A DNA stretch of 42,302 nt from a virus (Duplodnaviria; Heunggongvirae; Uroviricota; Caudoviricetes). The notes under the pieces were generated by a model. That model worked only from the letters and a program-made list of their open reading frames with translations. It had not been told where the DNA came from and did not search any database. A program made the position numbers and the translations under genes. Where the stretch lies: IMG/VR virus record IMGVR_UViG_2713896905_000008. One strand, 5' to 3'. Positions 1 through 37,659 of this stretch are shown here, piece after piece (the first letter of the stretch is position 1; each line of letters starts with the position of its first letter).

Positions 1-759
1 TTAAATTCTGGTCCTTACAATATCAACCTGAAGATTCTTATCTTGTGCAGATTGATAAATGACAAATCTCTTATTTCCTGCATTAAAAGAAGTAGACAAA
101 ACCAGACAATTATCATAACGGGCAAGGACATAATACCAACCATCATTATAATTAATCATTTCATATTCTTTCTTAAACTGTGGTTTGTAATATCCTGTCA
201 GAAATGAAAAAAGCCAAAAGTATGCCACAAAAGAGACCATCACAATCTCAAAAAAATGTTTTTTTATAAATGGCTTATCATAAAAGCATGATACCGATAA
301 AAATCGCCCGTAAAATCTTATCGCAATTGTAACACCCAGTGCAATAGCAGCTGACAGTAGCAAAAGAGGTACCTGAATCTTCTGTCTCAATATAGAAAAC
401 TCAATAATAGCCGGTACAAACAATAATTCCACAGCAAAATAAAGGCGAAATACATTTAGCTCCTGCATAGAGTGTTTTCTTTTCACTGCGAAAAAAAATA
501 CAACGCCAACACCCCAGCCGATAAGAAATATAGCTATGACAATAACTGCAAAAAATAAACTTCTGGCAACATCATCAACACCAGCACCTACAATCCACCA
601 TGGAAAGCCGTAGTAAAAAGAAGTGCCCCAGCCATAGAAATAAGCACTCCCCCACCCAAGGCATCCCATGTAGGCAATAAAAAGTGAAGAACTCCTGAGC
701 AGCGCACCATCCTTCATAACCACCTCAAAACAAGATGATAACATTGATTTACAATTCAT
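1..759 (-). CDS. polytopic membrane protein of unknown function (accessory gene in prophage remnant)
   Basis: Complete 252-aa ORF with stop at 1-3. Translation is dominated by hydrophobic helices (FFAVIVIAIFLIGWGVGVVFFFAV, LLLLSAAIALGVTIAI, IVMVSFVAYFWLFSFL). A+T-rich by eye. No family recognised. Confidence 0.45.
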   Translation of the reverse strand: MNCKSMLSSCFEVVMKDGALLRSSSLFIAYMGCLGWGSAYFYGWGTSFYYGFPWWIVGAGVDDVARSLFFAVIVIAIFLIGWGVGVVFFFAVKRKHSMQELNVFRLYFAVELLFVPAIIEFSILRQKIQVPLLLLSAAIALGVTIAIRFYGRFLSVSCFYDKPFIKKHFFEIVMVSFVAYFWLFSFLTGYYKPQFKKEYEMINYNDGWYYVLARYDNCLVLSTSFNAGNKRFVIYQSAQDKNLQVDIVRTRI

Positions 760-1003
760 AACAAAAGCAATTCAATGCCGTCAAGAGGCTATAGGCTAAA
801 AAACTCTATTACATTGTAGTCAGCATGTTTACTGCACAAGTACAATTCAGAGCATAAAAAAAACCACTCGGCGGCGGGTTTATACATTTCTTATAACATA
901 TCAAATTTGCACAAAATACATGGCTTTCAATCCAGTTTTACAATATAAAACGTGCTTCATTACACCCCTGCATTCAGTAAATGTCTCAGACCTGTTTTTG
1001 ATG

Positions 1004-1246
1004 TCACTCCCACCAGTGATACCAGCTCCTGGTATTCATAGGTCTTACGTCCGCCAGTTCGTTCTTCACACCCTGTGCCGCCAGCCAGATTAACTTCTTC
1101 AGCCGCTCCAGTGTTTTACCTGCAATTTTTCGTGAGCCTGACAGAGCCTTAAACTCGCTCCATGTCCACTGCGTTATGGCAACCTGATGCTCCCAGCGAA
1201 CATTTTCACTGTAACTCCAAAAGAAGTTCTGCCATATAAGACTCAA
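1004..1246 (-). CDS. hypothetical protein (prophage remnant)
   Basis: 80-aa ORF downstream of rusA on the same strand. No motif recognised; may be a gene fragment. Confidence 0.2.
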   Translation of the reverse strand: MSLIWQNFFWSYSENVRWEHQVAITQWTWSEFKALSGSRKIAGKTLERLKKLIWLAAQGVKNELADVRPMNTRSWYHWWE

Positions 1247-1249
1247 ACA

Positions 1250-1675
1250 TCATTCATTCCCCAGTTCGGTGATGGTCAGTTCCAGCTTCCCATCTTTGGT
1301 AACAGGCATATTCACAACACGGTAATCAACGACCTGAGTATCATCCAGCCAGAAACCTGCTTTGGTGAGTGCATCAAAAGCGGCTTTTTGCAGATTATCC
1401 AGGTCACGGCGACGACGATCCGGCATATGGCACTCGATGCAGATTTTCACAGGAGTAACCAAACCCGATATCCAGCATTGAGTCTTTGATGATTCGGGCA
1501 ACGTTATCGCGGTATGCCTGCCCTTTTGCACTGATGTGCGTGCGCCCGCAATTATGCGATAGTAGCGATTATTGATCGACGGCCAGGGTAGTGTGATGTT
1601 GTAAGTATCCACACCTTGATTACCTCCTCTTTCAGCCAGATAACCAACTTTCTCGCCATACCTTCCTGTGCGCAC
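1250..1675 (-). CDS. rusA: RusA-family Holliday-junction resolvase, probably disrupted
   Basis: N-terminal [17 protein letters not shown] and C-terminal [38 protein letters not shown]...ELGNE match RusA as I recall it. The central ~31 codons match RusA only when read in another frame ([31 protein letters not shown]), implying two compensating frameshifts. True start is probably internal to the ORF-track span. Confidence 0.65.
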
Positions 1676-1857
1676 TCTTTTGCATACCCAGCGTCAACAA
1701 AGTGTGTGCGGTGATCGATGCTACATTTCACGTCTGAGTGCTGACTACTAACCAGTTCCACAATCTCAACACTGGTCATGGATGCCTTGTCGTTAAAAAT
1801 TTCTGTACTCACTCTTCCTCCTTTGGGATAAATTCTTTTGATAACGTGCGCATCCAC
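1552..1857 (-). CDS. YbcO-like (DUF1364-type) prophage protein, N-terminus atypical
   Basis: C-terminal [30 protein letters not shown] resembles the nin-region protein that precedes rusA in DLP12-type prophages. Overlaps rusA start as in that arrangement. Confidence 0.45.
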
Positions 1858-1930
1858 ACCTATTGGTGCCGAACCCGTCTTAAGTTATCCTTATGATTTA
1901 TATAAATAAAATAATCAAAGAAGGTTCGAC

Positions 1931-2182
1931 ATGGATTTTGCAACAATTACAAGTAGTGTTGTGTTGAGTGCATGTGTCGCAGGCCTGGCTTCGCTGATTA
2001 ATAGTGCCTGGCAGCGCAAATCAGAACGAAAAATTGAAGTAGAGCATCGGGCTGCAGAAACTCGGGCAAAAATCAGAGAAATGGCTCTTACCCTTGCATT
2101 GAAGGAATGGGAATCTCACCAGGCCGTATCGAAAGCTAAAGGCGGGACGGTCAGCGGCCCGGAAGTTTACGTATTTCGATAA
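1931..2182 (+). CDS. small membrane-anchored protein, unknown function
   Basis: 83-aa ORF with an N-terminal hydrophobic helix (ITSSVVLSACVAGLASLINSAW) followed by a charged helical region. Preceded by AAAGAAGG SD-like sequence. Confidence 0.3.
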   Translation: MDFATITSSVVLSACVAGLASLINSAWQRKSERKIEVEHRAAETRAKIREMALTLALKEWESHQAVSKAKGGTVSGPEVYVFR

Positions 2183-2633
2183 CTTCGTATGCTCAACTCG
2201 ATAGATTCATGATTGAGAATCTCAGACAGACTCAATACGACGCGATGTGCGCAGTCGCAGTGATTCAGGCAGAGATCGAGCGATATCGTGAGAAAAATGG
2301 GCTACTAATGCCATAACCACAGTCAGCGCTTGTCATCTTTCCAAATTCTCATATCAGACTTGCGCCCGATAAACCGACGAAAACTATTTAAAACCCATCG
2401 AGTGAAATAATCTCTAAAACCAAAGAGATACCAGGTGAAAATATTCACGATAAAATGCCCGGTCAGAGCCCCCGATACCGCATGCAAGAACAGTAAAAAA
2501 ATCATATGTGTTCATAAATATCAGCCCTCATCGTTTTGCCTGGCATATCCTTTACCGGCAATCTTCTGTATGCGCTAAGCCTGGATACCACATCACACTT
2601 GATTTAGATCTGTCACGGCGAACTGCCGTTCAA

Positions 2634-3134
2634 GATAAATGCGGGATGCTACTTGCTCTTGTTACTGGACAACGTTTAGGCGATATCTGCAATTTGAAAT
2701 TCTCTGATATCTGGGACGACATGTTGCACATTACTCAGGAAAAAACCGGTTCAAAACTTGCTATTCCGCTTAACCTGAAATGCGATGCTCTGAATATTAC
2801 CCTTCGTGAAGTTATATCTCAGTGCAGGGATGCTGTTGTTAGTAAATATCTGGTCCATTACCGTCACACAACCTCTCAAGCAAACAGAGGGGACCAGGTT
2901 TCTGCAAATACTCTGACAACGGCTTTTAAAAAGGCCAGGGAAAAATGTGGCATAAAATGGGAGCAAGGAACTGCGCCCACATTTCATGAGCAGCGATCTC
3001 TGTCAGAACGGTTATATCGGGAACAGGGTCTGGATACGCAAAAGTTGTTAGGTCATAAATCCAGAAAAATGACCGACCGATACAATGATGATCGTGGTAA
3101 AGACTGGGTTATCGTAGATATGAAAACAGCATAG
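2634..3134 (+). pseudogene. 5'-truncated tyrosine integrase (paralogue of the int at 41175-42302)
   Basis: Translation LLALVTGQRLGDICNLKFSDIWDD...HEQRSLSERLYREQGLDTQKLLGHKS...DRYNDDRGKDW aligns with the C-terminal ~165 aa of the full integrase at the window end. The N-terminal two-thirds are absent; the upstream ORF sequence is unrelated. Confidence 0.8.
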
Positions 3135-3144
3135 AAAATAGCCA

Positions 3145-3180
3145 GTTTTGGGGAAGGGTTTTGGGGAAAGTTTTGGGGAA
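3145..3180. repeat. three tandem copies of GTTTTGGGGAA between the truncated integrase and the icd terminator
   Basis: cagTTTTGGGGAAGGGTTTTGGGGAAAGTTTTGGGGAAga read directly. Confidence 0.7.
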
Positions 3181-3190
3181 GATTTTACAT

Positions 3191-3224
3191 CATCATAAAA
3201 CAACGGGCGTGTTATACGCCCGTT
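3191..3224 (-). terminator. intrinsic terminator following the icd 3' end
   Basis: Perfect stem AACGGGCG/CGCCCGTT with loop, followed on the minus strand by GTTTTAT. Lies about 20 nt past the icd-like stop. Confidence 0.6.
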
Positions 3225-3240
3225 TCAATATTTAACACAT

Positions 3241-3414
3241 GTAGTGATTACATATTCTTGATGATCGCGTCACCAAACTCTGAACATTTCAGCAGCTTAG
3301 CGCCTTCCATCAGACGTTCGAAGTCATAGGTTACGGTCTTCGCATTGATTGCGCCTTCCATACCTTTAACAATCAGGTCTGCGGCTTCAGTCCAGCCCAT
3401 ATGGCGCAGCATTA
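3241..3414 (-). pseudogene. icd: duplicated 3' end of isocitrate dehydrogenase gene (icdC-like att-site duplication)
   Basis: Minus-strand translation [54 protein letters not shown] is the Icd C-terminus. Homology stops abruptly at about 3414, where A+T-rich phage DNA begins. Confidence 0.85.
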
Positions 3415-3471
3415 GTTAGATAACTAAATCGTAACTATTTGACATAGCAGCATAATTTTACTAATTTGCAT

Positions 3472-3506
3472 ATAACTCATTAGCTCTTAGCATTTCCATA
3501 ACTCAT
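3472..3506. repeat. two direct copies of ATAACTCATT next to the att junction (candidate integrase arm-type sites)
   Basis: cATAACTCATTag at 3472 and cATAACTCATTga at 3497, within 100 bp of the icd/phage boundary. Confidence 0.35.
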
Positions 3507-3645
3507 TGATTATCAACATGTGTTTTTGAGTTTTGATAACCATTTTTAGCATAAAAATAGCAGTTAACATTTGCAGAAGTTAAGATCAGAGAAAATTTTT
3601 ACCCTGTAGGGTATTACGTCTTAAATGTGACTTTAATAAACAATT

Positions 3646-4479
3646 TTATTTCTGTAATCGATTTATATTAACGTAAAGCATCTCGATTAGTTCTTTTGCA
3701 TTTTTACTATAGTGCAATTCTCTATGGCAATTCGGACAAAGGGCAACACAGTTATCTGTTGTATCAGCACCACCTGAAGACAGGGGAATTACATGATGCA
3801 CTTCCAAGTATGGGCTTCCATCATTTAAATAAAACGGAGCATTTTTACCACAGTTTTCACATATACCTTTACTTTGCTGTAAAATCCAAGCTTTTACCAT
3901 CGGATCTCGGACATAAACTTTTTGTAGTCTTTCTACCTCAACTGGTTTCCTGGAGCCCTCGGGCTGACTCAACGTTTTCTTAATTAATTTACTAACCCTC
4001 ATATTCAGAAGCGATTCATCATCTGTAGGCTGAGAAAGCTCTGATAGTTCTCCACGTATTATAGACACCCAAAAACTGTCACTATAAATACCTGGAACAT
4101 TTATCAATATTCGTTTCGTTCTATTGCCGGAAGGAATTTCCTTTCTCCCCGTACGACTAAAATAAGCCTGATAACCACACATCTTCAAGCGTATATCGCG
4201 GGGGCTATTACCAATCAAAGTAAAATATTCACCAGGATGGATTTTTCTTTCATCCAAAGAATGCATATGTTTTCTGACTGATGATGACGCCAGATATACT
4301 ACGACTTGGGATACACCAGAATCAACCAACCGTTCAATGATATAATCAAGAGCGATATTGTAATCTTTGTTTCTGTCACCCGGCCCCCACGACTCAAGGA
4401 TTAGACCATAAACACCATCCTCTTCACCTATCAAACACTCAGCTTTCAGTTCAATTCCATTATTATCAAAAACATGCAT
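3646..4479 (-). CDS. mcrA: McrA, type IV 5-methylcytosine-specific restriction endonuclease (HNH)
   Basis: 277-aa translation matches E. coli McrA essentially end to end as I recall it (MHVFDNNGIELKAEC...CENCGKNAPFYLNDG...HHVIPLSSGGADTTDNCVALCPNCHRELH). Same position as in e14, next to pin. Confidence 0.9.
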   Translation of the reverse strand: MHVFDNNGIELKAECLIGEEDGVYGLILESWGPGDRNKDYNIALDYIIERLVDSGVSQVVVYLASSSVRKHMHSLDERKIHPGEYFTLIGNSPRDIRLKMCGYQAYFSRTGRKEIPSGNRTKRILINVPGIYSDSFWVSIIRGELSELSQPTDDESLLNMRVSKLIKKTLSQPEGSRKPVEVERLQKVYVRDPMVKAWILQQSKGICENCGKNAPFYLNDGSPYLEVHHVIPLSSGGADTTDNCVALCPNCHRELHYSKNAKELIEMLYVNINRLQK

Positions 4480-4585
4480 AATATTAATCTTTAATCAATT
4501 TTTTACGACAATACTACTTTTATTGATAAAATTGCAACAAGTTGCTGTTGTTTTATTTTCTTTTGTACACAAAGTGACTTTAACT

Positions 4586-5147
4586 TTATTTATCCCCTGC
4601 AGGAAACATCTTATACAAAGTTGACACACCAACATCATAGATGATCGCCACCTTCTGGCGAGGAACTCCTGATGCAATTAATCGTCCGGCCTGTTCCCAT
4701 TGTTCTGGTGTAAGTTTGGGACGACGTCCACCAATTCGTCCCTGTGCGCGAGCAGCTTCCAGTCCAGCTTTTGTTCGTTCAACAATCAGTTCACGCTCCA
4801 TTTCAGCCAGGGCACCCATCACATGAAAAAAAAAAGCGCCCCATTGGGGTACTGGTATCAATTGAATCCGTCAGACTACGAAAGTTAATGCCTCGTTCGC
4901 GCAACTCCTCCACCAGCACGACAAGATGCCGCATACTGCGCCCCAGTCGGTCCAGTTTCCAGACCACCAGCGTGTCACCTGCCAATAATGTCCTGAGCAG
5001 TTTTTTCAGTCCTGGTCTGTCGGACTTAGTTCCACTGATTTTATCCTCAAAAATCCGCTCACATCCCGCGCAGTTCAGTGCATTACGTTGCAAATCGGTG
5101 TTCTGGTCATTTGTTGACACGCGTACATAGCCAATAAGCATGATCAT
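4586..5147 (-). pseudogene. pin: Pin/Gin/Hin-family serine DNA invertase, interrupted by a +1 frameshift
   Basis: N-terminal ORF 4803-5147 (MLIGYVRVSTNDQNTDLQRNAL...SIDTSTPMGRFFF) and C-terminal ORF 4586-4861 (FFFHVMGALAEMEREL...) are consecutive parts of Pin. The frames diverge in an A10 run at 4826-4835; with nine A's the reading is continuous. Confidence 0.85.
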
Positions 5148-5168
5148 CCCTCTGAATAAAAACCAGAG

Positions 5169-5702
5169 ATGATGCCAGTTAGCCGTTATTTCTGCATTTT
5201 CATAAACGTTGGTTTGGGAGAAGGTTCGGCATTACCCGTTGGAGTGCCTGTTCCGTGGCCTTCTGCCACTCCGCCAACAGGCTGGCTGAAATGCAACGGT
5301 GCGGCATTTTCTGCTGAAGAATACCCGGAACTGGCAAAGGCTTATCCGGCAAATAAATTACCTGATTTACGCGGTGAGTTTATTCGTGGCTGGGATGACG
5401 GGCGTGGAGCTGACAGTGGTCGGGGATTATTAAGCTTTCAAAAAGCCACTCTGGTTGAAAGTTTTGGTCTGGTCAGATCACCAACCACTGGCTCTTATCG
5501 TCTGGTTACCAGACCGACAGAAACTGTTTCTGATAATACGTCTAACTATATGACGACTGATTATGATTCCCGTGAAGGTTTATATTCCCCTGCAACAGCA
5601 TACCCCTCTATCGAATTGCCACCAACTGGAGCAGGCGCAGGGGCTGGTTTTAGGGTTCGACCAAGGAATATTGCATTTAACTATATTGTGAGGGCTGCAT
5701 AA
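5169..5702 (+). CDS. alternative tail-fibre C-terminal domain (S'v-like), not joined to the constant region in this orientation
   Basis: Reads in frame through the hix-like site (INVGLGEGSA versus [10 protein letters not shown] in the expressed fibre). Followed by a Tfa-type gene. Confidence 0.7.
   Translation: MMPVSRYFCIFINVGLGEGSALPVGVPVPWPSATPPTGWLKCNGAAFSAEEYPELAKAYPANKLPDLRGEFIRGWDDGRGADSGRGLLSFQKATLVESFGLVRSPTTGSYRLVTRPTETVSDNTSNYMTTDYDSREGLYSPATAYPSIELPPTGAGAGAGFRVRPRNIAFNYIVRAA
5197..5222. promoter_or_regulatory. left recombination site of invertible segment (hix/gix-like, inverted relative to 7057-7082)
   Basis: Reverse complement TTCTCCCAAACCAACGTTTATGAAAA shares the half-site TTCTCCCAAACCAA with the site at 7057-7082. 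Presumed crossover dinucleotide at 5209-5210. Confidence 0.7.
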
Positions 5703-6720: not shown

Positions 6721-7359
6721 TTATCTTCCTATTGCGATAATCATAGTTCCATACAAACCATTTCCGGTTGATACTTTTAAGGTTACTGATGTCCTTGTTG
6801 TCGTGTACCCCATAAGTTTAAAGGTCGGAGCAGCCGTTAATGTGCCATCAGACCATAAGGCACTAACAGCCAGTGCACCTGAAGGAAATGCAATAGGGAA
6901 ATTACCAGTAGTTCCGTTAGTGTCCGCCCCATAAACATTCATCGAAAACATTTGAACAATATGACCACTTGGTAACTGAAACCAGTTTTTGCCAGATGGA
7001 AATGCAGACATATCTGGTATCTGATTTTCTCCTGTTCCCACATTCCGTTTTGCCGCTTCTCCCAAACCAAGGTTTTCGAGAGCCGTTTTCACCGTGCCAT
7101 CCGATTTGATATCGCCAAACGGATTATTGCGGCTTAACAGCAGCGCGCGAAGTGCGGTAAGCAACTGATCGTGCCGCCCCTTCTCCAGGCTGGCACCGGA
7201 TGCCTCCACCACGCTGCAAAGCTCCTCCTGCAACATGTCAAAGTAGTCATCATCCAGATCGGTGGCAGGCGTGCCGGTCTGGGGGTTACCACGGGTAAAA
7301 CCGTTCTTACCCGCGCCGAACTTATCCTTCTGCGCGGTTTTCGTGTCTATACGATGCAT
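6721..7359 (-). CDS. tail fibre protein (constant N-terminus joined to currently expressed variable C-terminus; stfP-like)
   Basis: 212 aa. The hix-like site lies in frame at ALENLGLGE. Sits between the gp48-like gene and tfa, as in e14 and Mu S. Confidence 0.8.
7057..7082. promoter_or_regulatory. right recombination site of invertible segment (hix/gix-like)
   Basis: TTCTCCCAAACCAAGGTTTTCGAGAG; imperfect dyad around a central AA, reminiscent of 26-bp hix/gix sites. Located inside the tail-fibre coding region. Confidence 0.7.
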
Positions 7360-7362
7360 GGA

Positions 7363-7947
7363 TTACTCCGGATATTTAAAAATTACGTAGGTATGCGACG
7401 GGCAGAGTTTGTTAAGCACACACTCGACAACGGTGTCACCCCAGATACGCAGTGCGGAATCACAGGGATCGCCACATGTCATCCAGGTGGTGTTGGCGGC
7501 GGCTGGCATGTTGACCTGCCAGTAATACCGCCATTCCGGCGCATTCACAGCGTCAGTACAGGCCGATGAGCAGGTGAACGTGCTTTTGTCGTATCGCGTG
7601 ATGGTGGCATCCGGTCTGCCCAGGGCAGCAAGCTGTGCAAGATAAAAATCCTCGTTGATGCCGCCCGCCAGGTTAACCTTCGCATCCAGCCGTTGCTGAC
7701 GCTGGCGAAGGGTCTGTGTCCCTGCGGGAATACATTCATCCGGCAGACCGCACAGACGCTCCCAGCGGTTTATCAGTTCATTGGTGGTGCGCGGATCCAG
7801 CTCCCGCATCAGGGCATCCGCACGCTGATGAACGCGGGTTAATGACGGTGCCGCACCGGCAATCGCCGGATCGCTGGCTGACCACGCCGGACCGGGGGGC
7901 AACAGTGCCGACAACAGACGGATGTAATCATCGTTTGTCACGTCCAT
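7363..7947 (-). CDS. Mu gp48-like tail protein (YmfQ-like, DUF2313-type)
   Basis: 194 aa, between the baseplate J-like gene and the tail fibre; this length and position match e14 ymfQ. Confidence 0.7.
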
Positions 7948-8996
7948 GAAATCGTCCCCAGTACCGCCAGTTCATTTTTTGCAATGGAGATATTGTCTGC
8001 CGGTGCAAGCAACTGATGGCTGTATTCCCCGTTCGCACCGGAAATCGCCTCACTGATACGCGATACCTTCAGTTCTCCCTGCGGATAACCATCACGCAGC
8101 AGGAACGAACGCAACTCCGCGGTAATGGCAGCCCGTATTTCCGGTGTGTCCGGCGTCACACGGATATGAAAATCCACCGTATGTGCCACCGGCCTGAATA
8201 CATACAAATCAGAGCCTGCCACCGGGGCCAGTGGCCCGATATGTTGTCTTGCTGCCGTTTCCGTTGATTCTTCCGGAATGGGATTAATCAGGTCACTGCT
8301 GGCAATCATCACACCGACAGTTCCCGTTCCCATCCAGTGACGGTATGTCCATGCGCGGGTAATGCCGGGCACTTCTTTAGCCCAGACGACATAGTCCCCG
8401 TCAGCCCCGCCCTGAGGCGTCCAGTAATACCGCTCAATGACGCGGGCGCGCCACGTTTCCAGCTCTTCAGTATCAAATCCACCTGTCAGGGTATCTGCCA
8501 CGCCGGAAGACGGCAGACCATTAACCGGCGTGACCAGGATTAATGCCGTACCGTCGTCAGCGTTACCGACCGCGCCTGCACTTGAGCAGGCGATCGGCAC
8601 GCGCAGGACACCACCGGAGCTGGTTGCATCGGCAGTTGCCGTGTACTGAACCAGGTCATCGCGCTGAATAACACTCCCGGCGGTCACCTTCAGGCCATCG
8701 CTGACACCTTCCCAGCGCATATACCCGCTGGCAGCCGTGGCCCCCTTGCGCGGACACCGTTTCATCGCAGCATGTCGCGCCAGCCAGGACTCATCGCACA
8801 GGTCAGGCAGCATGTTCATTGCCAGATAATCGATGTATCCGTAAACCGTATGCAGCGCCGCCGCATACACCTTTGCCCGCACGTCTTCATCCATGCGCCG
8901 GAGCGTGTCGCTGACGTCCAGCCTGGCGAATAAATCGTTACGGAGCATACTGATATTTTCTGCCAGCGTCGGGCGCTGAAATTCACTGTCCGCCAT
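7938..8996 (-). CDS. baseplate J-like protein (Mu gp47-like)
   Basis: 352 aa; position in the Mu-like baseplate gene order. Confidence 0.75.
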
Positions 8997-11035: not shown

Positions 11036-11057
11036 TGCACTGGCACCTTCAGAGGGA

Positions 11058-12329: not shown

Positions 12330-12347
12330 TAACAGATTAATTTTTCA

Positions 12348-14183: not shown

Positions 14184-14324
14184 GTGTGCGTTTCTCCTGC
14201 TCTATCCTGTTTGCCTGACTGACCAGCAAGGGAATTTCACTGATCGGCATATTCAGCAATTCGAAGGGATTAATGCGCCAGTAGCTGGCGCAGTCAAAGA
14301 AGCGATCAGTGAGGTATTCAGCCG

Positions 14325-16600: not shown

Positions 16601-16608
16601 GAAGATTC

Positions 16609-18377: not shown

Positions 18378-18379
18378 AC

Positions 18380-18629: not shown

Positions 18630-19835
18630 TTACGCCGCTGCAATCTTCAGCAGTTTGATGGCCTGCGAATCGACCAGCATCCCGCCGGTGCGCTTGGTGG
18701 TATAAAAACCGACAAACGGTTTATTGGTGTACGGATCACGCAGAATGCGGGTGCCGATACGGTCAACGATGGTGTAACCCCGTTTGAAGTTACCAAATGC
18801 AATGGCTTTCGCATCAGCGGCGATATCCGGCATCTGTTCGTTTTCAGCGATACCGTAACCCGCCAGAGAGGACGGCTGCCCCAGTTCCAGCCCCGGACGC
18901 CACAGATAATTACCCTCGGTGTCTTTCAGCAGACGGATGGCAAACAGGCTGTTGTTGTTCATCATGAACTTCGCGCCAGTGCGGTGTGCCTTTCGCAGCG
19001 TGTAAATCAGTTTGATAATGGCGTCTGCGGTCACCGCAGTCGCGTCGCCGGATACAATATGCTGAAGTTTGCCGAACGCCCGGACCTTATCGGTTTCATC
19101 AGTGGATTCATACGCCAGGAACCCTTTTGGCTTCTTGGTACCATCGCCGGTGGTAAAGGCAATTTCTTCCTGTTCGGCAAATTCGGTTGCCAGCTCGCTG
19201 TTGATCCAGGCCTCCACGTTGAAAAAGGCATCATCCAGCATTTTCTGGGTGGCCTGCGGGTTACCGTAGATTTCCCCCATGAAAGGTTCAATCAGCCCCA
19301 GTTTTGAGGTGGCAGTCTGGGAGCGCGCGTCAGTCTCGCCAACCCATCCGGAAGCCGTGCCGCCCAGATTCACCAGTTTTTTGTAGTCGGAACCACCAAC
19401 GGTGATCACCGTGGCTTCCTGACGCATCACCACTTCATCTTTCAGCAAGGTCAGAATGTTGCGATCCAGCGCTTCCGGCACGGCATAGCCACCGTCTTCA
19501 TCGGTGCCCACCTGTAATGCCTTGCGCTCCAGATCGCGCAGACCATCTTCACGGCCTTTACGCAGGAAGCCCACAAACGCTTCTTTATGCTCGGTGGCCA
19601 GTTTATTTTGCGCACCACCTGCCGGACGTTTCAGCTCAAGCAGCTCTTTTTCAAGGTCGCTTTTGAGATTTTCCAGCTCGCTGAGTTTTCCGTTCAGGGT
19701 TTCCACCTGCCCGGCAAGTTTGCCTTTTTCCTGCTCAATCGCCTCAACGCGCTTGTCGTTCTTTGCTTTGAAGTCGTCAAACTTCTGCTGCAGCTCCTGC
19801 GCGACCTGTTCGACATCTTTAATATCAACCGCCAT
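18630..19835 (-). CDS. major capsid protein, HK97 family
   Basis: 401 aa with an N-terminal coiled-coil delta-like domain (KLAGQVETLNGKLSELENLKSDLEKELLELK). Follows the prohead protease. Confidence 0.85.
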   Translation of the reverse strand: MAVDIKDVEQVAQELQQKFDDFKAKNDKRVEAIEQEKGKLAGQVETLNGKLSELENLKSDLEKELLELKRPAGGAQNKLATEHKEAFVGFLRKGREDGLRDLERKALQVGTDEDGGYAVPEALDRNILTLLKDEVVMRQEATVITVGGSDYKKLVNLGGTASGWVGETDARSQTATSKLGLIEPFMGEIYGNPQATQKMLDDAFFNVEAWINSELATEFAEQEEIAFTTGDGTKKPKGFLAYESTDETDKVRAFGKLQHIVSGDATAVTADAIIKLIYTLRKAHRTGAKFMMNNNSLFAIRLLKDTEGNYLWRPGLELGQPSSLAGYGIAENEQMPDIAADAKAIAFGNFKRGYTIVDRIGTRILRDPYTNKPFVGFYTTKRTGGMLVDSQAIKLLKIAAA

Positions 19836-19849
19836 CGTATTTCTCCTGA

Positions 19850-20536
19850 TTAGAAGTTCAGATTTTTCAGTGCATTCAGTGCAGAGCCCACATCCTCAGC
19901 GTCGCGCAGGGACAGTGCGCCATAGCCCCCGGCCATGAATGCTTTGGCCTGGGTACGGGAGAGTCCGACATCACGCAGGACTCTTTCGATTTTTTTCTGT
20001 TCGGGGATTTCCCCGCGGGCCAGTGCGTTCTTGACGTCGCTGATCCGCGCCTCGTCGTTAGACGGGAATGTCACCAGACTGACTTCCCAGAGGTCGATTT
20101 CTTTCAGCAGAAAGGCTTCTTTCGTCCGGTCGTATTCCCAGTCCTTCAGGACGTACCCAATAGAAAGGCCGGTTAACGAACCGGCCTTCATGTGTGCATG
20201 TGCGCGTTTTGCGAGGGGATCATCATCAATGAGCAACCGCCCCCTGACGTAAAGCCCGACATCGTCTTCCTTCATTTCGGTGTAAACACCGATGGGCTCA
20301 TCCATGCGGTGCTGCCAGAGCAGCGCAGGTAACGCTTTTCTGTCACTCCACACCCGCAGGGAAGCAGCAAATGCCCCGGACATCACCACATCATCGTGGC
20401 TGTCCTTTACACCAAAGACGGAGCCATACCCTTCAAACTCACCGGAGTCACTGACAGATTTCAGACTCAGCGGTACATCAAGACGTTGTTTCGTCTGCAT
20501 TGGCGTTATCCTTCTGCTTACCGGCTTTACTGCCAT
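19850..20536 (-). CDS. prohead protease, HK97 family
   Basis: About 215 aa between portal and capsid. Start probably at an internal Met. Confidence 0.75.
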   Translation of the reverse strand: MAVKPVSRRITPMQTKQRLDVPLSLKSVSDSGEFEGYGSVFGVKDSHDDVVMSGAFAASLRVWSDRKALPALLWQHRMDEPIGVYTEMKEDDVGLYVRGRLLIDDDPLAKRAHAHMKAGSLTGLSIGYVLKDWEYDRTKEAFLLKEIDLWEVSLVTFPSNDEARISDVKNALARGEIPEQKKIERVLRDVGLSRTQAKAFMAGGYGALSLRDAEDVGSALNALKNLNF

Positions 20537-21719
20537 CGGAGGGTTTCGTGGTCATGTTCATCGGTGTGAGATAGACATCACCACCGGGACGCGGATTCAT
20601 ATCTTCCAGGTCGCGGCAGTCATTGGGAGAGTAAATTCCCCAGTTGATCCCGGTGGCGTAGGCTTCAAAACGGGACTTCATATCCCCGCGCAGTAACGCC
20701 CCGGCGTTAAATTTGGCGTAATAAACGCCCTGCTTACTTTTTCGTACCAGTCCGGTGTTGATCCGCTGTTCGATGCGGGTCAGATACGGCACCAGTGAAT
20801 AGTTGATAAATCCCAGCCCCAGCTCTTCGATATTGTTGAAGGTGGCTCGATCGGTGTTCTGCACCATGTGCAACGGCACCCGGAACAGACGACAGATTTC
20901 TTCAAGCTGAAACTTGCGGGTTTCCAGGAACTGGCTGTCCTCGGCGTTCAGCGCCATCGACTTCCAGTCCAGCCCCATCTCAAGGATCATCGGGCGGTGA
21001 GCATTGCCAAGCCCGGTGTGACGCTCCTCAAAATCTTTCTTCAGGCGCTCATAAGCCTGATCTGACAGCGTCTGCTCTGTACGCAACACACCCGACGTCA
21101 CCGCGCCATTGCTGAACAGTCTGGCCCCGTGCTCTTCGGTCGCTGCCGCCAGCGATATTGCCTCGCGGGCATAGGCGACGGGATTCAGTCCCACCAGACC
21201 GTCCAGCGTCAGCGTGCGCACATGCCAGATATCCTCCTGGCTCAGTACATCCGTGGAGCCGTCCGGGAATGTGACCTGATAGACCGGCTCCCAGCTACTG
21301 TTAAGCTTCGGTACCACACAGCCGGGATCGACGGGCAGCAGTTCAGCCACTTCGCCAAATGCTTTCACTTTGTAGGCGTAAAAGTTTCCCCGCAGGCACA
21401 GACAGGTGACCACCAGCTCCCAGAACTCCTGCGGCGTCATATAGCCATTGGGATGCGTGGAGATCAGCTTATGCAGACGCTCGCCGGTGGCTCTCTGTTT
21501 CAGGCTGCCGTTCAGGTGATACAGATTGCAGGGCAACATCCCGACCGACTCTGCCAGCACCCTGACGCAGGAAAAAACCGCCGTCAGTCGCATGGCCCGC
21601 TGGCTGCTGATCTGCTTTCCGGTATAGGTGTCGTAGGACAACCCGATAGCATCCGCCAGCTCTGCTGGCGTGGTCACCGGTGCGTCACTTTTTCGTTGAA
21701 ATAATCCCGAAAAGAACAC
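20478..21719 (-). CDS. portal protein
   Basis: 413 aa between terminase and protease, with an acidic C-terminus. Confidence 0.85.
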   Translation of the reverse strand: MFFSGLFQRKSDAPVTTPAELADAIGLSYDTYTGKQISSQRAMRLTAVFSCVRVLAESVGMLPCNLYHLNGSLKQRATGERLHKLISTHPNGYMTPQEFWELVVTCLCLRGNFYAYKVKAFGEVAELLPVDPGCVVPKLNSSWEPVYQVTFPDGSTDVLSQEDIWHVRTLTLDGLVGLNPVAYAREAISLAAATEEHGARLFSNGAVTSGVLRTEQTLSDQAYERLKKDFEERHTGLGNAHRPMILEMGLDWKSMALNAEDSQFLETRKFQLEEICRLFRVPLHMVQNTDRATFNNIEELGLGFINYSLVPYLTRIEQRINTGLVRKSKQGVYYAKFNAGALLRGDMKSRFEAYATGINWGIYSPNDCRDLEDMNPRPGGDVYLTPMNMTTKPSDGSKAGKQKDNANADETTS

Positions 21720-21901
21720 TATTTACCTCCGCCGACAGACGACTGTGTACGGTCGAGATATCGCGCCACCAGCCACGACCAGAACAGGCACAACGCCCCG
21801 GCAACAACAAACCCCGCCGGGGGATAAATCAGCCAGGCACCATACGCCAGCAAAAGCGCCCCCAGCACGCCCACCAGAGGCGCGAGAATCAGCATGATCA
21901 T
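21719..21901 (-). CDS. small membrane protein
   Basis: 60 aa with two hydrophobic helices; between terminase large subunit and portal. Confidence 0.35.
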
Positions 21902-26788: not shown

Positions 26789-27115
26789 TTACTCCTTAGA
26801 GCCACCAAACTTATTACCGATTACTCTCATTGCAGCCCCACGAATAGCATCGACCCCGATCAGCCCAACGCCGCCACCAATGGCAACAGAAAGAGATTTA
26901 GGCCATCCGACATACTCAAGAGCGGATGCAAAAGTCAGCGTCAGAGCACCACAGAGCAAAATCTCGAGCGTTTTTCGTTTCCAGCCACCACCACCGCCAA
27001 AATAGGCAATGCGCAAGCCAGCCATAACGATCGACATAATCACTGCGCCCAGCGGTGTGTCTCCACGCCACCAGCTCTGGACCAACTCCAGCCAGGTATT
27101 TGGGTTATGAGGCAT
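26789..27115 (-). CDS. holin
   Basis: 108 aa with three hydrophobic segments and a charged C-terminus, immediately upstream of the endolysin. Confidence 0.6.
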   Translation of the reverse strand: MPHNPNTWLELVQSWWRGDTPLGAVIMSIVMAGLRIAYFGGGGGWKRKTLEILLCGALTLTFASALEYVGWPKSLSVAIGGGVGLIGVDAIRGAAMRVIGNKFGGSKE

Positions 27116-27406: not shown

Positions 27407-28582
27407 ATGGATATAACTTGTTTAGAATGTGGCAATGTTCTTGACGACCCAACTGTAGCTTGCGATAAATGCGGCGCCACGCCTCATGTTGTAGTGCTGG
27501 GCAAACAATCGTACTTTCCTATTGGTGCTGTAACAGCAAATCTTGAAAAAAATGATTCAAGAGCATTTGATTATCGATTAGGTGAAGTTTGGGATCTAAA
27601 AAATGAAGTCACATCTGAATTCATAACCAGAATTGAGAAAAAATTTAGCCGAAAAAACAAATTTCATAACTTCCTAGACTCAGATCACAACCCTTCATCC
27701 ATTCCTACGATCCTAAAAAAATACATTAATAAAAATAATGAATTCATTGATTTATCTAGAGCTATAATAGAGAAGCTTAAACATAATGCTAATAACGAAT
27801 CGAGAGTTGCCCAACTTCAGGGGGGGAGCGTTGTTTTCATCCACTATAAGTCTACCGAACCAGAGGATTTGGGAAAACTTCTAATCGTAATGGTTGATAA
27901 ACAAAGCGCCTATGACTTTGATTCGGATAAGTTGACCCCAACAAGATTAAATCCAATTAATACCGATGCCTTACGGCAGGCTGCGATGTTCGATTTAACT
28001 TTATTCGAAGCCAGTTATCCAGAAAACAAGGGTGACTCATATGTACATTTCTTGCAAGGTAAATCTAAAAGCGATTTTTTCAAAGACTCATTAGGTTGCC
28101 GACATGATTCGGACAATAAAAGAAGCATTCAGCAATTATTCAGTGCTATAGATATTTTTGCTAGTAAAAACTCACTCGGTCGTGTACTGCGTGATACTAT
28201 TGACAATGAAGTTAAATCCTTACTGGAAAAAAAATCAAAAGATAAATACGGAAATAAGTCCGTTAAGATAGAGGATATTTCAAAAATAATTGACTCATGC
28301 CTGACTGATTCACACAAATGTAAGGGAACGTTTGTCGATTTTGTTAATCTTAATGGTTTCCAGATTGATCCTCAATTTGAACCAACTCCTAAAGCAGCTG
28401 AAAGCGCGCTTACAATTGAAGTGGCAGATAACGACAATAATTTTAAGTTGAAAATAATGCGTGGAGCTATTGGAGACGAAAAGTCAAATAAGCCTGTAAT
28501 TCTCACTGACAACAAATGCGAAATTGTGATAAAATTGAGTCAGGCAAATTATGATGAACTCAAAAGATATAGAGACAGCTAA
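27407..28582 (+). CDS. zinc-ribbon protein with NdpA/YejK-like (NA37-type) region; first gene of a cargo pair
   Basis: 391 aa. N-terminal CLECGN...CDKCG four-Cys ribbon. Central region aligns by eye with YejK: GGSVVFIHY / GGFVLFCHY and YVHFLQGKSKSDFFKDSLG / [22 protein letters not shown]. A+T-rich. Confidence 0.6.
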   Translation: MDITCLECGNVLDDPTVACDKCGATPHVVVLGKQSYFPIGAVTANLEKNDSRAFDYRLGEVWDLKNEVTSEFITRIEKKFSRKNKFHNFLDSDHNPSSIPTILKKYINKNNEFIDLSRAIIEKLKHNANNESRVAQLQGGSVVFIHYKSTEPEDLGKLLIVMVDKQSAYDFDSDKLTPTRLNPINTDALRQAAMFDLTLFEASYPENKGDSYVHFLQGKSKSDFFKDSLGCRHDSDNKRSIQQLFSAIDIFASKNSLGRVLRDTIDNEVKSLLEKKSKDKYGNKSVKIEDISKIIDSCLTDSHKCKGTFVDFVNLNGFQIDPQFEPTPKAAESALTIEVADNDNNFKLKIMRGAIGDEKSNKPVILTDNKCEIVIKLSQANYDELKRYRDS

Positions 28583-28584
28583 TA

Positions 28585-29799
28585 ATGACAATTGCTGATG
28601 ACTTATCAAGATTAGCGCAGATTATTAACGGAGCCTCAAGCAGAGTTGAGGGCTACTACACTGTCATAAGTCTTGAAGAAAGCATTGTTATTGTAAATAG
28701 TTCTGAAATAATTAGACTGTTACAATCTATAGGTTATAAAAAGGCAACAAACTGCATCGAAAATAATGAAATTTGGCTAGATCGCCAAGCTTCATCTTGG
28801 GATGACGCTATAATTTATGAGAATGTTGAGTCTTTTTGGTCTAGAGTAAACACCCAAAACGCTCTTCCGAAAAATTATATCATCGGAACGCCGTTAATAC
28901 TCCCTACTTCTAAGAATGAAAGCATCGAAAAAATCCATATTTTCTTTATGTGGAAAGATATCCTTTCATTAATTGCTGATCATCATAACAGTGACTGCTC
29001 TGTCTTATTTTTCACCAATGAAGACAAAAGTTATACAGTCGAACTCACGCATTTTTTACAATATAGCGAGATTAATCGCTTATCGAACTCGTCTCTTAAA
29101 TATGAAATTATAAAGGAGCTTCTCGACACAATAAAAATCAATGATTTACACAAAAGCGAGCGCAAGCTCGTTATACGTTCAGCCATAAACGAAGTATTTA
29201 AAGCAAATGGTACATTCAATTTCTTTGACTTGCTTAACTCTACTGAACTCGTCAGAAAAAAATATGATGAACTATATGAGATTTACACAAAGAGGTTTTC
29301 TGTAAATAAAATTCTTAACGAACTCGATGAGAAAAATCTTGAGTTCACGAGTAAAATTAACGAATTCATATCATCTAATCAGACAAAAGCATTGACTATT
29401 CCCGGTGCATTAATAGCAGCTGGTGGCTTAGTGAAGGCTAATGAAACAACCGAAGCAATATTGATTATCGCAGGACTTTGGATGATAAAAAAAGTCAATT
29501 ACATTTCTATTGAGATATTCAATGAAACATTCGACAACTTACGTTCTCGAGTGGAGTCCGCTTTCGATAAGTATTTAAAGTTTGAAGAAAATAAAGAAAT
29601 CAAAGATAATGCAGATAGTATTAAGAGTAGCATTACAGGTTTGATTGATAAAGCTAAAAAAAGGATGAGAACTGTTAAATATCTCGCATCAGCCATGTTT
29701 TATGGAGGCCTTATTTACGTTGGATATAAACAGTTCCCAGTCTTTTTTGAAAAATCGGCAGTAAATCTATTTTATTTTTTATGCCATACTATAAGCTAA
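28585..29799 (+). CDS. protein with C-terminal two-helix membrane anchor; second gene of the cargo pair
   Basis: 404 aa, starts 2 nt after the upstream stop. Hydrophobic helices ALTIPGALIAAGGLV...AILIIAGLWMI and YLASAMFYGGLIYVGY. No enzymatic motif recognised. 3' end overlaps the Q gene stop convergently. Confidence 0.6.
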   Translation: MTIADDLSRLAQIINGASSRVEGYYTVISLEESIVIVNSSEIIRLLQSIGYKKATNCIENNEIWLDRQASSWDDAIIYENVESFWSRVNTQNALPKNYIIGTPLILPTSKNESIEKIHIFFMWKDILSLIADHHNSDCSVLFFTNEDKSYTVELTHFLQYSEINRLSNSSLKYEIIKELLDTIKINDLHKSERKLVIRSAINEVFKANGTFNFFDLLNSTELVRKKYDELYEIYTKRFSVNKILNELDEKNLEFTSKINEFISSNQTKALTIPGALIAAGGLVKANETTEAILIIAGLWMIKKVNYISIEIFNETFDNLRSRVESAFDKYLKFEENKEIKDNADSIKSSITGLIDKAKKRMRTVKYLASAMFYGGLIYVGYKQFPVFFEKSAVNLFYFLCHTIS

Positions 29800-30152: not shown

Positions 30153-31148
30153 TCAGGCCAGCACGCCAATTGCCAGCGCACGATCGATAAAACGAAATAT
30201 CAGCTCCAGCTGGGAGCCATACTTCTCTTCAAATGCCACGGTATCCGCATGCAGCTCGTCGTGATGCTTTCTGCACAAAGGCAACACAAAAAGGTCATGC
30301 GCTTTTGTTCCCATTCCACCCTGACCGTAACCTATCAGGTGATGGGGATCATCAGCGGGCCTTCCACAACATGCACACGGCTGTGTCTTAACCCAGCGCG
30401 TGTACTTTTCATTAACCCAGCGGCGACGTTTGGGGCGTAACATAAAAGACTCCGGCGACTCCGGATCCACTTTCAGCGCCAGCACCTTTTTCGCCTTATC
30501 CAGGATGATGCTGGTGGCAGGAACCGAAGGCACAAGGTCACTTTCCCGGGTGACAGACGGCACAACAGGCTTCGGTAATCTCAGTGCCTTACGGGCTGCA
30601 CTTTCCGGTAAGGCATCCGCCAGATCATTACGAATCAGCCACCAGCACAGTTCCGGCATTGTCACAACGTGACTGTCATCAAAACCGAGATCCCGACGCA
30701 CAACAGACAACACCCAGCGGGCACAGTTATCCGTTGCCATTGTTTCCAGCCGTTCCGTGAACTGATCGCGCAGCTGGTTATCGCAGTGCCAGCACAGACG
30801 GATTGCGCCCGGAGCGTGCCGCATTGTGGTCATGTTCTCGCTGTGCCAGTCGGAATGAGGCCACTGACAGCCCTTTTCACGAAGTAACCAGCTTTCAAGA
30901 CATTCCACGCCACCAGCACGACGGATCACTGCCTCATAGCGGAACACGGCCCGAACGGCAGGATCATCCGCCAGCGGTTGTGATGCCGCCGGAACGGCAC
31001 CACTGGCGAAAGATGAATAACGTTCTGGCTCAGGCTCCAGCAGGACACGCCCCTGCATAAACAGGGGCATCAGCTCTGTACCTGGTCTGAACAATACGAT
31101 CCCCATACGCGGGGCAATTTCAGGGGTCAGTAGTGCTCTCACGGTCAC
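30153..31148 (-). CDS. DUF968-like protein with C-terminal HNH-type Cys/His motif
   Basis: 331 aa; C-terminus CACCGRPADDPHHL...LCRKHHDELH; nin-region position. Confidence 0.5.
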   Translation of the reverse strand: MTVRALLTPEIAPRMGIVLFRPGTELMPLFMQGRVLLEPEPERYSSFASGAVPAASQPLADDPAVRAVFRYEAVIRRAGGVECLESWLLREKGCQWPHSDWHSENMTTMRHAPGAIRLCWHCDNQLRDQFTERLETMATDNCARWVLSVVRRDLGFDDSHVVTMPELCWWLIRNDLADALPESAARKALRLPKPVVPSVTRESDLVPSVPATSIILDKAKKVLALKVDPESPESFMLRPKRRRWVNEKYTRWVKTQPCACCGRPADDPHHLIGYGQGGMGTKAHDLFVLPLCRKHHDELHADTVAFEEKYGSQLELIFRFIDRALAIGVLA

Positions 31149-32356: not shown

Positions 32357-32679
32357 ACTTTCAGGCCCCTCTCATGTAACCAGTGGGCTGCACGCAGCCT
32401 GGCGTTTTCCTCACCGGCAAGCAGTGAGCGGATAATCCCGGCCGCCTCGCTGTCGTCGTCCTTCACCGCGGTATGAAGAGTGATACCCCGGGCCACGCCA
32501 CGCTTTATCGTGATGACGCCTTTTTTCTCCAGTGCGCGAAGATGCTCCACCGCTGCATTCACTGAACGGTATCCCAGCATGGTTGCCACCTCCTGATTGG
32601 TTGGCGGAAAGCCACGCTCTTTCTGGTAAGAAATCAGCATATCCAGCACCTGCTGCTGGCATTGAGTTAACGTCGTCAT
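32353..32679 (-). CDS. LexA-like winged-helix DNA-binding protein (no peptidase domain)
   Basis: 108 aa; QQQVLDMLISYQKERGFPPTNQEVATMLGYRSVNAAVEHLRALEKKGVI parallels the LexA N-terminal domain. Confidence 0.55.
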   Translation of the reverse strand: MTTLTQCQQQVLDMLISYQKERGFPPTNQEVATMLGYRSVNAAVEHLRALEKKGVITIKRGVARGITLHTAVKDDDSEAAGIIRSLLAGEENARLRAAHWLHERGLKV

Positions 32680-33362
32680 GCCGCCATCTCCCTGACCAGT
32701 TTTTCTGCCTGCTGGCGAACCTGCGCCAGAAAGGCCTCACCACATGCCTCAAGTTCATCGCGCCCGATGTAGCTGATTGCCGCTCCCTTCCAGGTCTTAT
32801 CGAAAACAGCAATAGCACCAGCGAAGAACGCTCCTGTCGGCACCTGCTTCTCATCCTTCGGGATAAACCAGACAGGCAGTTCAAAACCAATACGCCCGCG
32901 AATAAAAGCAATATGGTCCGCATCTTCCGGCCACCACACTTCGCTGGTGGCAGCTTTGATCAGGAAAACATAGCGCCCGCCCTTATCACGCATGGAACTG
33001 GCATGTTTCATGATGTAACGCATGCCGGTGATGTATTGCCCCTCATGCTGACTGGCGCGGCTGTATGGGGGATTACCAAAGGCAGCACCTTTAAGCTCCG
33101 CAAGACGTTCTGACCAGTCATGCGCCAGCGCGTTATCTTCCGCCGTGTAATACGCGGCACATTTGGCGTTATCACCGTCAGTAAACAGATCCAGAACAAA
33201 CGGGCCAAACAGGGTGTTAATTCCCCAGAAAATGTTGTCCGGCGTGCGCCACTGATCGCCCACTTCCTTCAGTTCATGGGCTGGTTTGTTCCGCAGTTCC
33301 ACCAGCGCCTGGCAATATTTATTACTCATTAAGCCCCCACGTAATTCCCTGACAGATACCAC
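32676..33362 (-). CDS. phage DNA N6-adenine methyltransferase
   Basis: 228 aa with NPPY catalytic motif (AAFGNPPYSRA). Confidence 0.7.
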   Translation of the reverse strand: MVSVRELRGGLMSNKYCQALVELRNKPAHELKEVGDQWRTPDNIFWGINTLFGPFVLDLFTDGDNAKCAAYYTAEDNALAHDWSERLAELKGAAFGNPPYSRASQHEGQYITGMRYIMKHASSMRDKGGRYVFLIKAATSEVWWPEDADHIAFIRGRIGFELPVWFIPKDEKQVPTGAFFAGAIAVFDKTWKGAAISYIGRDELEACGEAFLAQVRQQAEKLVREMAA

Positions 33363-36069: not shown

Positions 36070-36756
36070 GTGAAAACACTGGCAGAACGATTAAAGATAG
36101 GTAGAGAGAAAGCTGGCATGAGCCAAGCTCAACTAGCTGAAAAAATTGGACTTTCACAACAATCTGTAGCCAAAATAGAGAATGGCGAAACTCTACAACC
36201 GCGCAAAATTAAAGAAATTGCAAAAGTTTTAGGTGTATCACAAAAGTGGTTACAACTTGGTATTGAAGACAACGCATCCATACCTGATCTTGTTGTAAAA
36301 GAAGCAGAAAGCACCGCATTAGACCCCGATATTTTCGTAAACATTCCTGTTTTAGATGTCGAGTTATCGGCAGGTAACGGATGTCTGGCTGAAATAGTTG
36401 AATCAGCTATTGACTGGTTTCCGTTAAGAAGAGCAGATTTGAGAAAATCTGGCGTATGTGCATCTAATGCCAAGATCGTAAAAATATGGGGGAACAGTTT
36501 ATTACCGGTTCTCAATAATGGAGATCTTGTTGCCGTTGATATTTCTCAAACCATTCCTATTCGTGATGGCGATCTTTATGCCGTACGAGATGGTGTATTG
36601 CTAAGGGTTAAAATACTTATCAACTTACCTGACGGTGGCTTGATTCTTAGAAGCTTCAACAAAGATGAGTACCCAGATGAAATACTCACCTTTGAAGATA
36701 GACGAGCCAGAATTCATGTTATAGGTAGGGTATTCTGGTCATCGCGAACTTGGTAA
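36070..36756 (+). CDS. CI-like prophage repressor (HTH plus LexA/S24 peptidase-like domain)
   Basis: 228 aa; N-terminal HTH MSQAQLAEKIGLSQQSVAKIENG; C-terminal S24-like region (IWGNSLLPVLNNGDLVAVD). Probable GTG start. Confidence 0.8.
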   Translation: MKTLAERLKIGREKAGMSQAQLAEKIGLSQQSVAKIENGETLQPRKIKEIAKVLGVSQKWLQLGIEDNASIPDLVVKEAESTALDPDIFVNIPVLDVELSAGNGCLAEIVESAIDWFPLRRADLRKSGVCASNAKIVKIWGNSLLPVLNNGDLVAVDISQTIPIRDGDLYAVRDGVLLRVKILINLPDGGLILRSFNKDEYPDEILTFEDRRARIHVIGRVFWSSRTW

Positions 36757-37659
36757 TGCATCGAAAAGCATTTCTTCAGAAATAATTTTAAGTTTTGCAC
36801 CATTATCATCCCTATAAGATATAGCTTTTTCGATCTTCCTTCCGTGACTTGAGAATTTCCAATCACGGGAGGAAAGCGTCCCAATTACTAAAAAATCCAA
36901 CTTTTGAGTAATTCCACTACTGATGTTCCCACCAGCATTTTTAATCAAATTTTCAACTACGGCTCTCTTTCCTGCAACAAAAGTGCCTGTAAGACAATAG
37001 GTTTTACCCTCTAACTCTATCGAAGCCCCTACATCAATAGGCAGCCTGGTCGCCAAACCATCCACCACCCCACTTTCCAAGTCACATCCTGTGAAGTCTA
37101 CTAATGCCTTATGTAGAGTTAAACTCTCATCTTCAGTAATAACCCCATCTTTAAGAATTTCCTTTACAAGTGCATAAAGTTTTTTTCCTGGGTAGTTGTT
37201 CTTCAAAGCTCCATTTTGCTCAAGCCACCAATTAAGATATCTTATTTCTTCTTGAGTTAAGTTCCGATCAGCAATTAATCCTTTACATAGTCCATTAAGT
37301 AAATGGACATCTACATCCTTGGAGTAAAAATCAATTTCAGGGATATCAAGAATTTCCCTCTGTATTTGGAGAAGGCTATTTTTAAGGTCATCACGTTCTT
37401 CTGATGTGATTATTCCATCCGCAAGAATATCCGACACCCGTGCTGATAGACTTTTTATAACTCCATTATTGATAATCTGCTTTGCTTCAAGTAACCATGT
37501 ATCTAAGTAAAGAACCTCCTCTTCACGGACAACTCCATCTGCAATGATTCCATCAATGATGCTAATCAAGTTAGCAAATAACTTGTCCCGGTTCTGTGTG
37601 TAATTAAAAGCGTAAAGCGCGTCTTCCATACAACCTCCTTTTTTTGATAATCCTTGCAC
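36739..37659 (-). CDS. BRCT-domain protein with four N-terminal ~35-aa repeats, unknown function (cargo at rexAB-equivalent position)
   Basis: C-terminus LEGKTYCLTGTFVAGKRAVVENLIKNAGGNISSGITQKLDFLVIG...KLKIISEEMLFDAL parallels the LigA-type BRCT fold. N-terminal repeats each contain ..ADG.IT.EE...L.. A+T-rich; convergent with cI. Confidence 0.55.
   Translation of the reverse strand: MQGLSKKGGCMEDALYAFNYTQNRDKLFANLISIIDGIIADGVVREEEVLYLDTWLLEAKQIINNGVIKSLSARVSDILADGIITSEERDDLKNSLLQIQREILDIPEIDFYSKDVDVHLLNGLCKGLIADRNLTQEEIRYLNWWLEQNGALKNNYPGKKLYALVKEILKDGVITEDESLTLHKALVDFTGCDLESGVVDGLATRLPIDVGASIELEGKTYCLTGTFVAGKRAVVENLIKNAGGNISSGITQKLDFLVIGTLSSRDWKFSSHGRKIEKAISYRDDNGAKLKIISEEMLFDALPSSR

Follow-up and report, generated by a model that had tools for sequence, protein, structure and literature searches.

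An intact copy of the McrA restriction gene between pin and the icd duplicate of an e14-type prophage

The stretch of DNA analysed here (the window, 42,302 nucleotides) carries at 3646..4479 an ordinary, intact copy of the gene for the well-studied restriction enzyme McrA. McrA has been known on e14 since the 1980s and its structure has been solved; an identical protein is annotated in public databases, so the finding of the gene is not itself new. Its identity, motifs, position and context can be read directly from the DNA. On these sequence grounds we consider it very probable that the gene is a functional EcoKMcrA allele, a "moron", or accessory gene, which a full-length e14-type prophage integrated in icd carries at its pin-proximal end (Table 1).

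The ORF list of the window gives mcrA as a single frame of 277 codons which begins with ATG and whose stop codon lies within the coordinates. BLASTP alignment of the product with K-12 McrA, translated from the annotated MG1655 mcrA, showed 274/277 identities and no gaps, and PDB entry 6GHC matched residues 1-277, the full length of the protein (E = 3.6e-188). The PADLOC mREase_IV profile, which describes type IV methyl-directed restriction enzymes, was matched at positions 1-277 of 277 (E = 1.9e-200), and the Pfam HNH domain PF01844 was found at residues 207-256 (E = 2.2e-15). Similarity to the EcoKMcrA family thus covers the whole protein and reaches beyond the HNH domain. A reading of the DNA made earlier without database searches (the sequence-only reading) had called a full-length mcrA here, and the alignment with E. 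coli McrA that it proposed bears this out: the HNH motif is intact and, at 99% identity, there is no substantial divergence. A 95-aa ORF at 3696..3983 on the plus strand overlaps the gene, and its existence is the sole support for the reading that 3646..4479 is a chance frame or a mis-called strand and that the plus-strand ORF is the real feature. That ORF is antisense and lies inside mcrA, and the full-length matches to 6GHC and the PADLOC profile (E = 1e-188 to 1e-200), together with that to K-12 McrA, rule the reading out.

At the nucleotide level the gene differs from K-12 mcrA at 9 positions: 6 changes are synonymous and 3 replace an amino acid (S16L, A138V and N222S). Contigs bearing the exact protein were found in 92 blocks of a public assembly collection, and the sources of this protein label it as 5-methylcytosine-specific endonuclease McrA of Escherichia albertii. 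Among 5426 complete E. coli genomes, mcrA is annotated in 331; the best DNA identity to the window gene is 99.0%, and no identical copy was found in the set. The window DNA is therefore likely to stem from E. albertii or a near relative. Relatives in the narrow sense were found in Escherichia/Shigella, Salmonella and Buttiauxella only. NCBIfam gave no match to an McrA-specific model, and only sub-threshold matches to HNH-containing families (IscB, PT-DNA restriction, HlpB), a result that adds nothing to the assignment but does not speak against it.

Table 1 Features of the mcrA end of the window.
Feature	Position	Strand	Basis or note
Membrane ORF next to Q-antiterminator region fragment, lambdoid remnant	1..946		
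RusA-like ORF in lambdoid remnant	1250..1675	-	
Second integrase, C-terminal fragment (208-aa ORF) of lambdoid remnant	2508..3134	+	PF00589 on equivalent genes in relative loci L007, L008, L011
icd 3'-end duplicate, icdC-like, 165 nt (last 54 codons + stop); marks att junction	3248..3412	-	homology
AT-rich prophage arm between mcrA and att junction	3413..3645	.	~97% identical to K-12 mcrA-icdC spacer
Terminator-like hairpin followed by T-run, 33 nt downstream of mcrA stop	3600..3613	-	consensus match only
mcrA	3646..4479	-	ORF list; alignments in text
HNH (beta-beta-alpha-Me) nuclease core of McrA, residues 207-256	3712..3861	-	Pfam PF01844
NEco domain of McrA (residues 1-143), modified-cytosine reader	4051..4479	-	limits from PMC7145662
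AT-rich intergenic region, pin stop codon to mcrA start; presumed mcrA promoter and ribosome-binding site	4480..4585	-	inferred
pin (pinE-type serine DNA invertase), frameshifted	4586..5147	-	A10 run at 4826..4835
Pin-invertible tail-fibre segment	5204..7075	.	20-nt inverted repeats 5204-5223 and 7056-7075, 95% complementary

By its gene order and alignment, the element that carries the gene is related to e14 and, at about 39 kb, full-length. The K-12 e14 remnant is collinear with the window in six blocks (3195-5224, 7056-8725, 21312-23049, 34528-35664, 38578-38966 and 40930-42302), the correspondence including intE/xisE; the window does not extend to the functional icd beyond the integrase. 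The order icdC-mcrA-pin is that of K-12 e14 (pinE-mcrA-icdC), with the icd 3' duplicate at the junction and mcrA and pin terminal. This duplicate is homologous to K-12 icdC and 85-86% identical to the icd 3' end, the homology ends at 3412, and its equivalent in related loci bears the annotation of a partial isocitrate dehydrogenase. Over the structural region (7056-24627), identity to the 43-kb prophage record ON470584, which has a Mu-like tail, is 97.6-98%. Prophages of the e14/SfV-like type combine lambdoid early genes with a Mu-like tail.

The sequence-only reading had placed mcrA between the icd duplication and pin, as in e14, and this holds. It had also described the gene as next to the att junction: mcrA does stand beside the junction marked by the icd duplicate, but what lies beyond is a second, decayed icd-targeting prophage and not chromosome. 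Positions 1..3194 hold a decayed lambdoid remnant, not the iraM region of K-12, and an intact homologue of its integrase fragment directly abuts icd in E. coli A10. We read the arrangement as two icd-targeting elements in tandem, in which the junction on the mcrA side would be one of prophage with prophage and the remnant, by the insertion order that we infer, the older of the two. Within the remnant, an 83-aa ORF at 1931..2182 (+) matches positions 1-83 of the 131-position PADLOC PD-Lambda-6 profile (E = 1.1e-48) as well as phrog_36733, and may be a truncated defence gene.

Several further features of the prophage were recorded. A two-gene cassette at 27407..29799 (+) lies on the strand opposite to its neighbours, between a holin gene (26789..27115) and a DUF968 gene (30153..31148). 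Its products are a nucleoid-associated protein of 391 aa, NA37/YejK-like (Pfam, 1.4e-23; phrog_3767), and a protein of 404 aa (phrog_5023), neither of which has a PADLOC match, and the cassette looks like an accessory-gene insert. At 36739..37659 (-), the gene for a 306-aa BRCT-domain protein with a weak match to PADLOC PDC-S48 (2.7e-07) converges on that of a CI-like LexA-family repressor (36070..36756, +), a pair that is also annotated in a prophage of E. coli PCP06173. The structural relative ON470584.1 (vB_EcoM-689R6), deposited as a "partial genome", has at 19502..21783 mcrA followed by a tail-fibre gene and not by the att/icd arm; this join differs from that of the window and probably arose as an artefact, either of assembly or of how the prophage boundary was drawn. 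The sole paper that names vB_EcoM-689R6 appears to deal with phages found within clinical-isolate genomes, and for this reason we do not take the record to prove that viable virions package mcrA.

The neighbour on the other side of mcrA is pin, as had been read from the DNA, though a frameshift in it had been overlooked. A homopolymer run that is one base too long (A10 on the plus strand, read as T10 in the gene) breaks pin into ORFs of 114 and 91 aa. The relative locus L008, 99.989% identical to the window over 9 kb, has nine bases in this run and a normal Pin of 184 aa, and Pin is intact at this length in 8/8 related loci. The tenth A may stem from a sequencing error in the homopolymer, or the frameshift may be real, possibly at a slippage-prone site. 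In close relatives (L004-L011) the adjoining tail-fibre segment is seen in either orientation, which indicates that Pin-mediated inversion is active in the lineage.

The structures 6R64, 6T21 and 6T22 match residues 1-143 of the window McrA (E = 5.9e-93). Functional roles of residues were taken from the structural papers on the HNH (PMC6182155) and NEco (PMC7145662) domains. NEco contacts DNA through segments 29-37, 64-71 and 107-123: bases are contacted by G32-G34, R109, G118, N119 and T121, while S30, K122 and N119 make up the proximal methyl pocket and W31 the distal one (PMC7145662). The HNH domain contains two CxxC zinc motifs, with H228, H252 and H256 as metal ligands, H229 as general base and N243 in a structural role (PMC6182155); we assigned the zinc motifs to C207/C210 and C248/C251 by sequence position. 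All 19 of the 19 residues named for recognition, zinc binding or catalysis are intact in the window protein: S30, W31, G32, P33, G34, R109, G118, N119, T121 and K122 in NEco, and C207, C210, C248, C251, H228, H252, H256, H229 and N243 in HNH. The protein thus has both sequence hallmarks of the EcoKMcrA family, the NEco residues including loop 29-37 and the HNH core.

None of the three substitutions falls on a residue so named. S16L and A138V are in the NEco domain, outside the DNA-contact segments, and N222S is within the 215-224 loop, which contributes to the HNH dimer interface. The McrA of ON470584 and a Buttiauxella homologue of 75% identity likewise have serine at 222. Position 138 varies in the Buttiauxella homologue as well, and S16L is unique to the window protein among six aligned sequences.

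The signals around the gene resemble those in K-12. In the 106-nt region upstream of the mcrA start, which presumably drives its expression, 103/106 positions are identical to K-12, and the hairpin with T-run downstream is conserved there too. A promoter scan gave no more sites than shuffled sequence did (7 sites, against 5.5 expected), none of them convincingly placed upstream of mcrA, where no strong sigma-70 consensus was found; a TTGCAA-N18-TATTGT match in the intergenic region was noticed by eye only. The slot formed by mcrA and its flanks (3413..4585) has a GC content of 34.8%, against 50.2% elsewhere in the prophage, a difference that acquired cargo would be expected to show.

These observations bear on whether the window allele is silent or crippled, an intact-looking relic in which S16L, A138V, N222S or poor expression abolishes restriction. 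The position of N222S in a dimer-contact loop and the local decay evident in the frameshifted pin and the adjacent prophage could be taken in its favour; the uniqueness of S16L and the want of a strong sigma-70 consensus count, with N222S, against a functional allele. However, the ORF is full-length with every functional residue intact, synonymous changes outnumber replacements 6 to 3, and two further lineages have S222. The identical protein moreover recurs in many independent assemblies, and elsewhere the prophage looks complete, as the close match of its structural region to ON470584 illustrates. We therefore hold a crippled copy to be very improbable, and a functional EcoKMcrA allele remains our preferred reading.

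How such an allele would act can be drawn from EcoKMcrA, in which the HNH domains of a dimer join and form one DNA channel and the two NEco domains bind DNA separately. NEco recognises Y5mCGR and Y5hmCGR without base flipping, and fully modified sites are bound cooperatively (PMC7145662). [quoted passage not shown] In vivo, M.HpaII-methylated plasmid and T4gt are restricted; when expression is low or moderate, this requires H228/H229. Neither lambda nor glucosylated wild-type T4 is restricted (PMC6182155). The same paper indicates that Dcm methylation (CCWGG) is not an McrA target.

For the window allele, expression, activity and specificity are predictions. The protein would dimerise via its C-terminal HNH domains, and each NEco domain would bind fully or hemi-5-methylated or 5-hydroxymethylated Y-C-G-R without base flipping, with the methyl groups held in the S30/K122/N119 and W31 pockets; the HNH dimer would then use a divalent metal (Mn2+ in vitro) to cleave the DNA. 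A lysogen should restrict incoming DNA with 5mC in CpG context, such as plasmids or phages methylated by enzymes of the M.HpaII or M.SssI type, and also the non-glucosylated 5hmC DNA of T-even phages. Host Dcm methylation and the Dam-type adenine methylation of the prophage would be spared. The prophage encodes a Dam-type N6-adenine methyltransferase at 32676..33362 (-) (Pfam PF05869, 5.1e-45), and a scan that covered part of the prophage ORFs turned up no C5-cytosine methyltransferase. As the Dam-type enzyme is the only methyltransferase among the scanned ORFs, no self-conflict with McrA is expected.

The same enzyme and mechanism could bring a different selective benefit, namely a barrier to CpG-methylated foreign DNA (plasmids, other prophages, DNA of the vertebrate host) in place of an anti-phage function, so that the host of the prophage is protected from competing mobile elements. 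The Y5mCGR specificity fits CpG methylation, both lambda and glucosylated wild-type T4 escape McrA, and the close relatives are confined to the few genera listed above. Clear orthologues come mainly from vertebrate commensals and pathogens, according to two papers (PMC6182155; PMC7145662). Against this stand the efficient restriction of T4gt, which contains 5hmC, and the pressure from phages on this position that is implied by CMoRE/PD-T4-3, a dedicated anti-T-even nuclease which adjoins pin in 565 E. coli genomes. We regard the barrier as unlikely to be the main role, though far from negligible; it is compatible with an anti-phage role, and the two are not mutually exclusive.

The closest known system is EcoKMcrA itself, the product of K-12 mcrA/rglA on e14 (PDB 6GHC, 6R64, 6T21, 6T22). 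It shares with the window protein its length of 277 aa, 99% identity and the NEco and HNH domains, and its gene also lies between pinE and the icd 3' duplicate, with an upstream region 97% identical to that of the window. The two proteins are set apart by the three substitutions. The carriers differ more: the window prophage is full-length whereas K-12 e14 is a deleted remnant of 15 kb, the integrases are only 89% identical at the DNA level, and on the far side of the junction a prophage remnant takes the place of iraM. The McrA of Escherichia albertii (CTW52088.1; genome CP030781.2) is a 100% identical protein with the same pin and tail-fibre neighbours, and in loci of this type the flank beyond the icd duplicate varies between assemblies. 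A more distant comparison is ScoMcrA from Streptomyces coelicolor (PDB 5ZMM), which shares only the HNH domain with the window McrA (residues 183-275, E = 5.5e-11). Its N-terminal sensor lacks homology to NEco: it is an SRA domain and is directed at phosphorothioate as well, so that the two do not belong to the same family in the narrow sense.

CMoRE/PD-T4-3 is of interest as a functional counterpart. A recent study characterised PD-T4-3, under the name CMoRE, as a type IV endonuclease that targets DNA with 5hmC and glucosyl-5hmC (PMC12923530). Like mcrA, its gene directly follows the pin stop codon and encodes a single-gene, modification-dependent nuclease directed against modified cytosine. 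Its fold, however, is GIY-YIG and unrelated to the NEco-HNH architecture of McrA, the gene lies on the opposite strand relative to pin, and the carriers inspected are integrated elsewhere, for example at ssrA. CMoRE acts on glucosylated 5hmC (PMC12923530), which McrA does not restrict (PMC6182155).

The sequence-only reading had further asserted that mcrA confirms this att-proximal slot as a defence-gene locus. One gene cannot confirm this, but a comparison across prophages supports it. We searched 3195..5200 against E. coli genomes and inspected six sister prophages, a small sample. Many E. coli prophages match the window from 4585, the base before the pin stop codon, onward and not below, and alignment of the pin modules shows that homology among them stops right after the pin stop codon (4585/4586). 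The six sister prophages share the baseplate, tail-fibre and pin module, and in 6/6 other genes stand beyond the pin stop; in 5/6 this cargo includes a PADLOC-listed defence or candidate gene.

Four of the six (L017 at 4169..4942, L018, L019 and L021) have a GIY-YIG protein right after pin, which matches PADLOC PD-T4-3 (E = 2.4e-140). Two of these four carriers, integrated beside ssrA, also have a type II restriction-modification system adjoining it (type II REase in PADLOC, E = 1.5e-233). The remaining two sisters are L020, next to prfC, with an LPO_1073/Vpar_1526-family protein and an 84-aa partner (3452..4644), and L022, with an FRG-domain protein (candidate PDC-S15, E = 8.4e-99) and two hypothetical proteins of 350 and 271 aa (908..4764). 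PADLOC returned no match for 4 of the 7 slot cargo proteins scanned. The arrangement of PD-T4-3 with pin occurs in 565/5426 E. coli genomes, compared with 329-331 for that of mcrA with pin.

On this comparison, the exchange of defence genes in the pin-proximal slot holds, and two unrelated modified-cytosine nucleases are the commonest occupants in the sample. A fixed break in homology, differing cargo behind it and defence genes among that cargo, as found in the six loci sampled, are what one would look for in a hotspot. The wider proposal, that the site after the pin stop codon is a defence hotspot of e14/SfV-like prophages in which non-homologous single-gene type IV nucleases (McrA and CMoRE/PD-T4-3) interchange, we put forward tentatively, as somewhat short of probable. 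A limited literature search found no paper describing the slot.

For annotation, mcrA serves to mark one end of a complete e14-type prophage. A lysogen of this prophage probably restricts CpG-methylated and 5hmC DNA, which would be relevant when such strains are to be transformed or infected. The comparison made around mcrA could guide the search for new defence genes in the pin-proximal slot: if the hotspot is real, the LPO_1073/Vpar_1526 pair of L020 and the 350-aa and 271-aa proteins of L022 would be new anti-phage systems.
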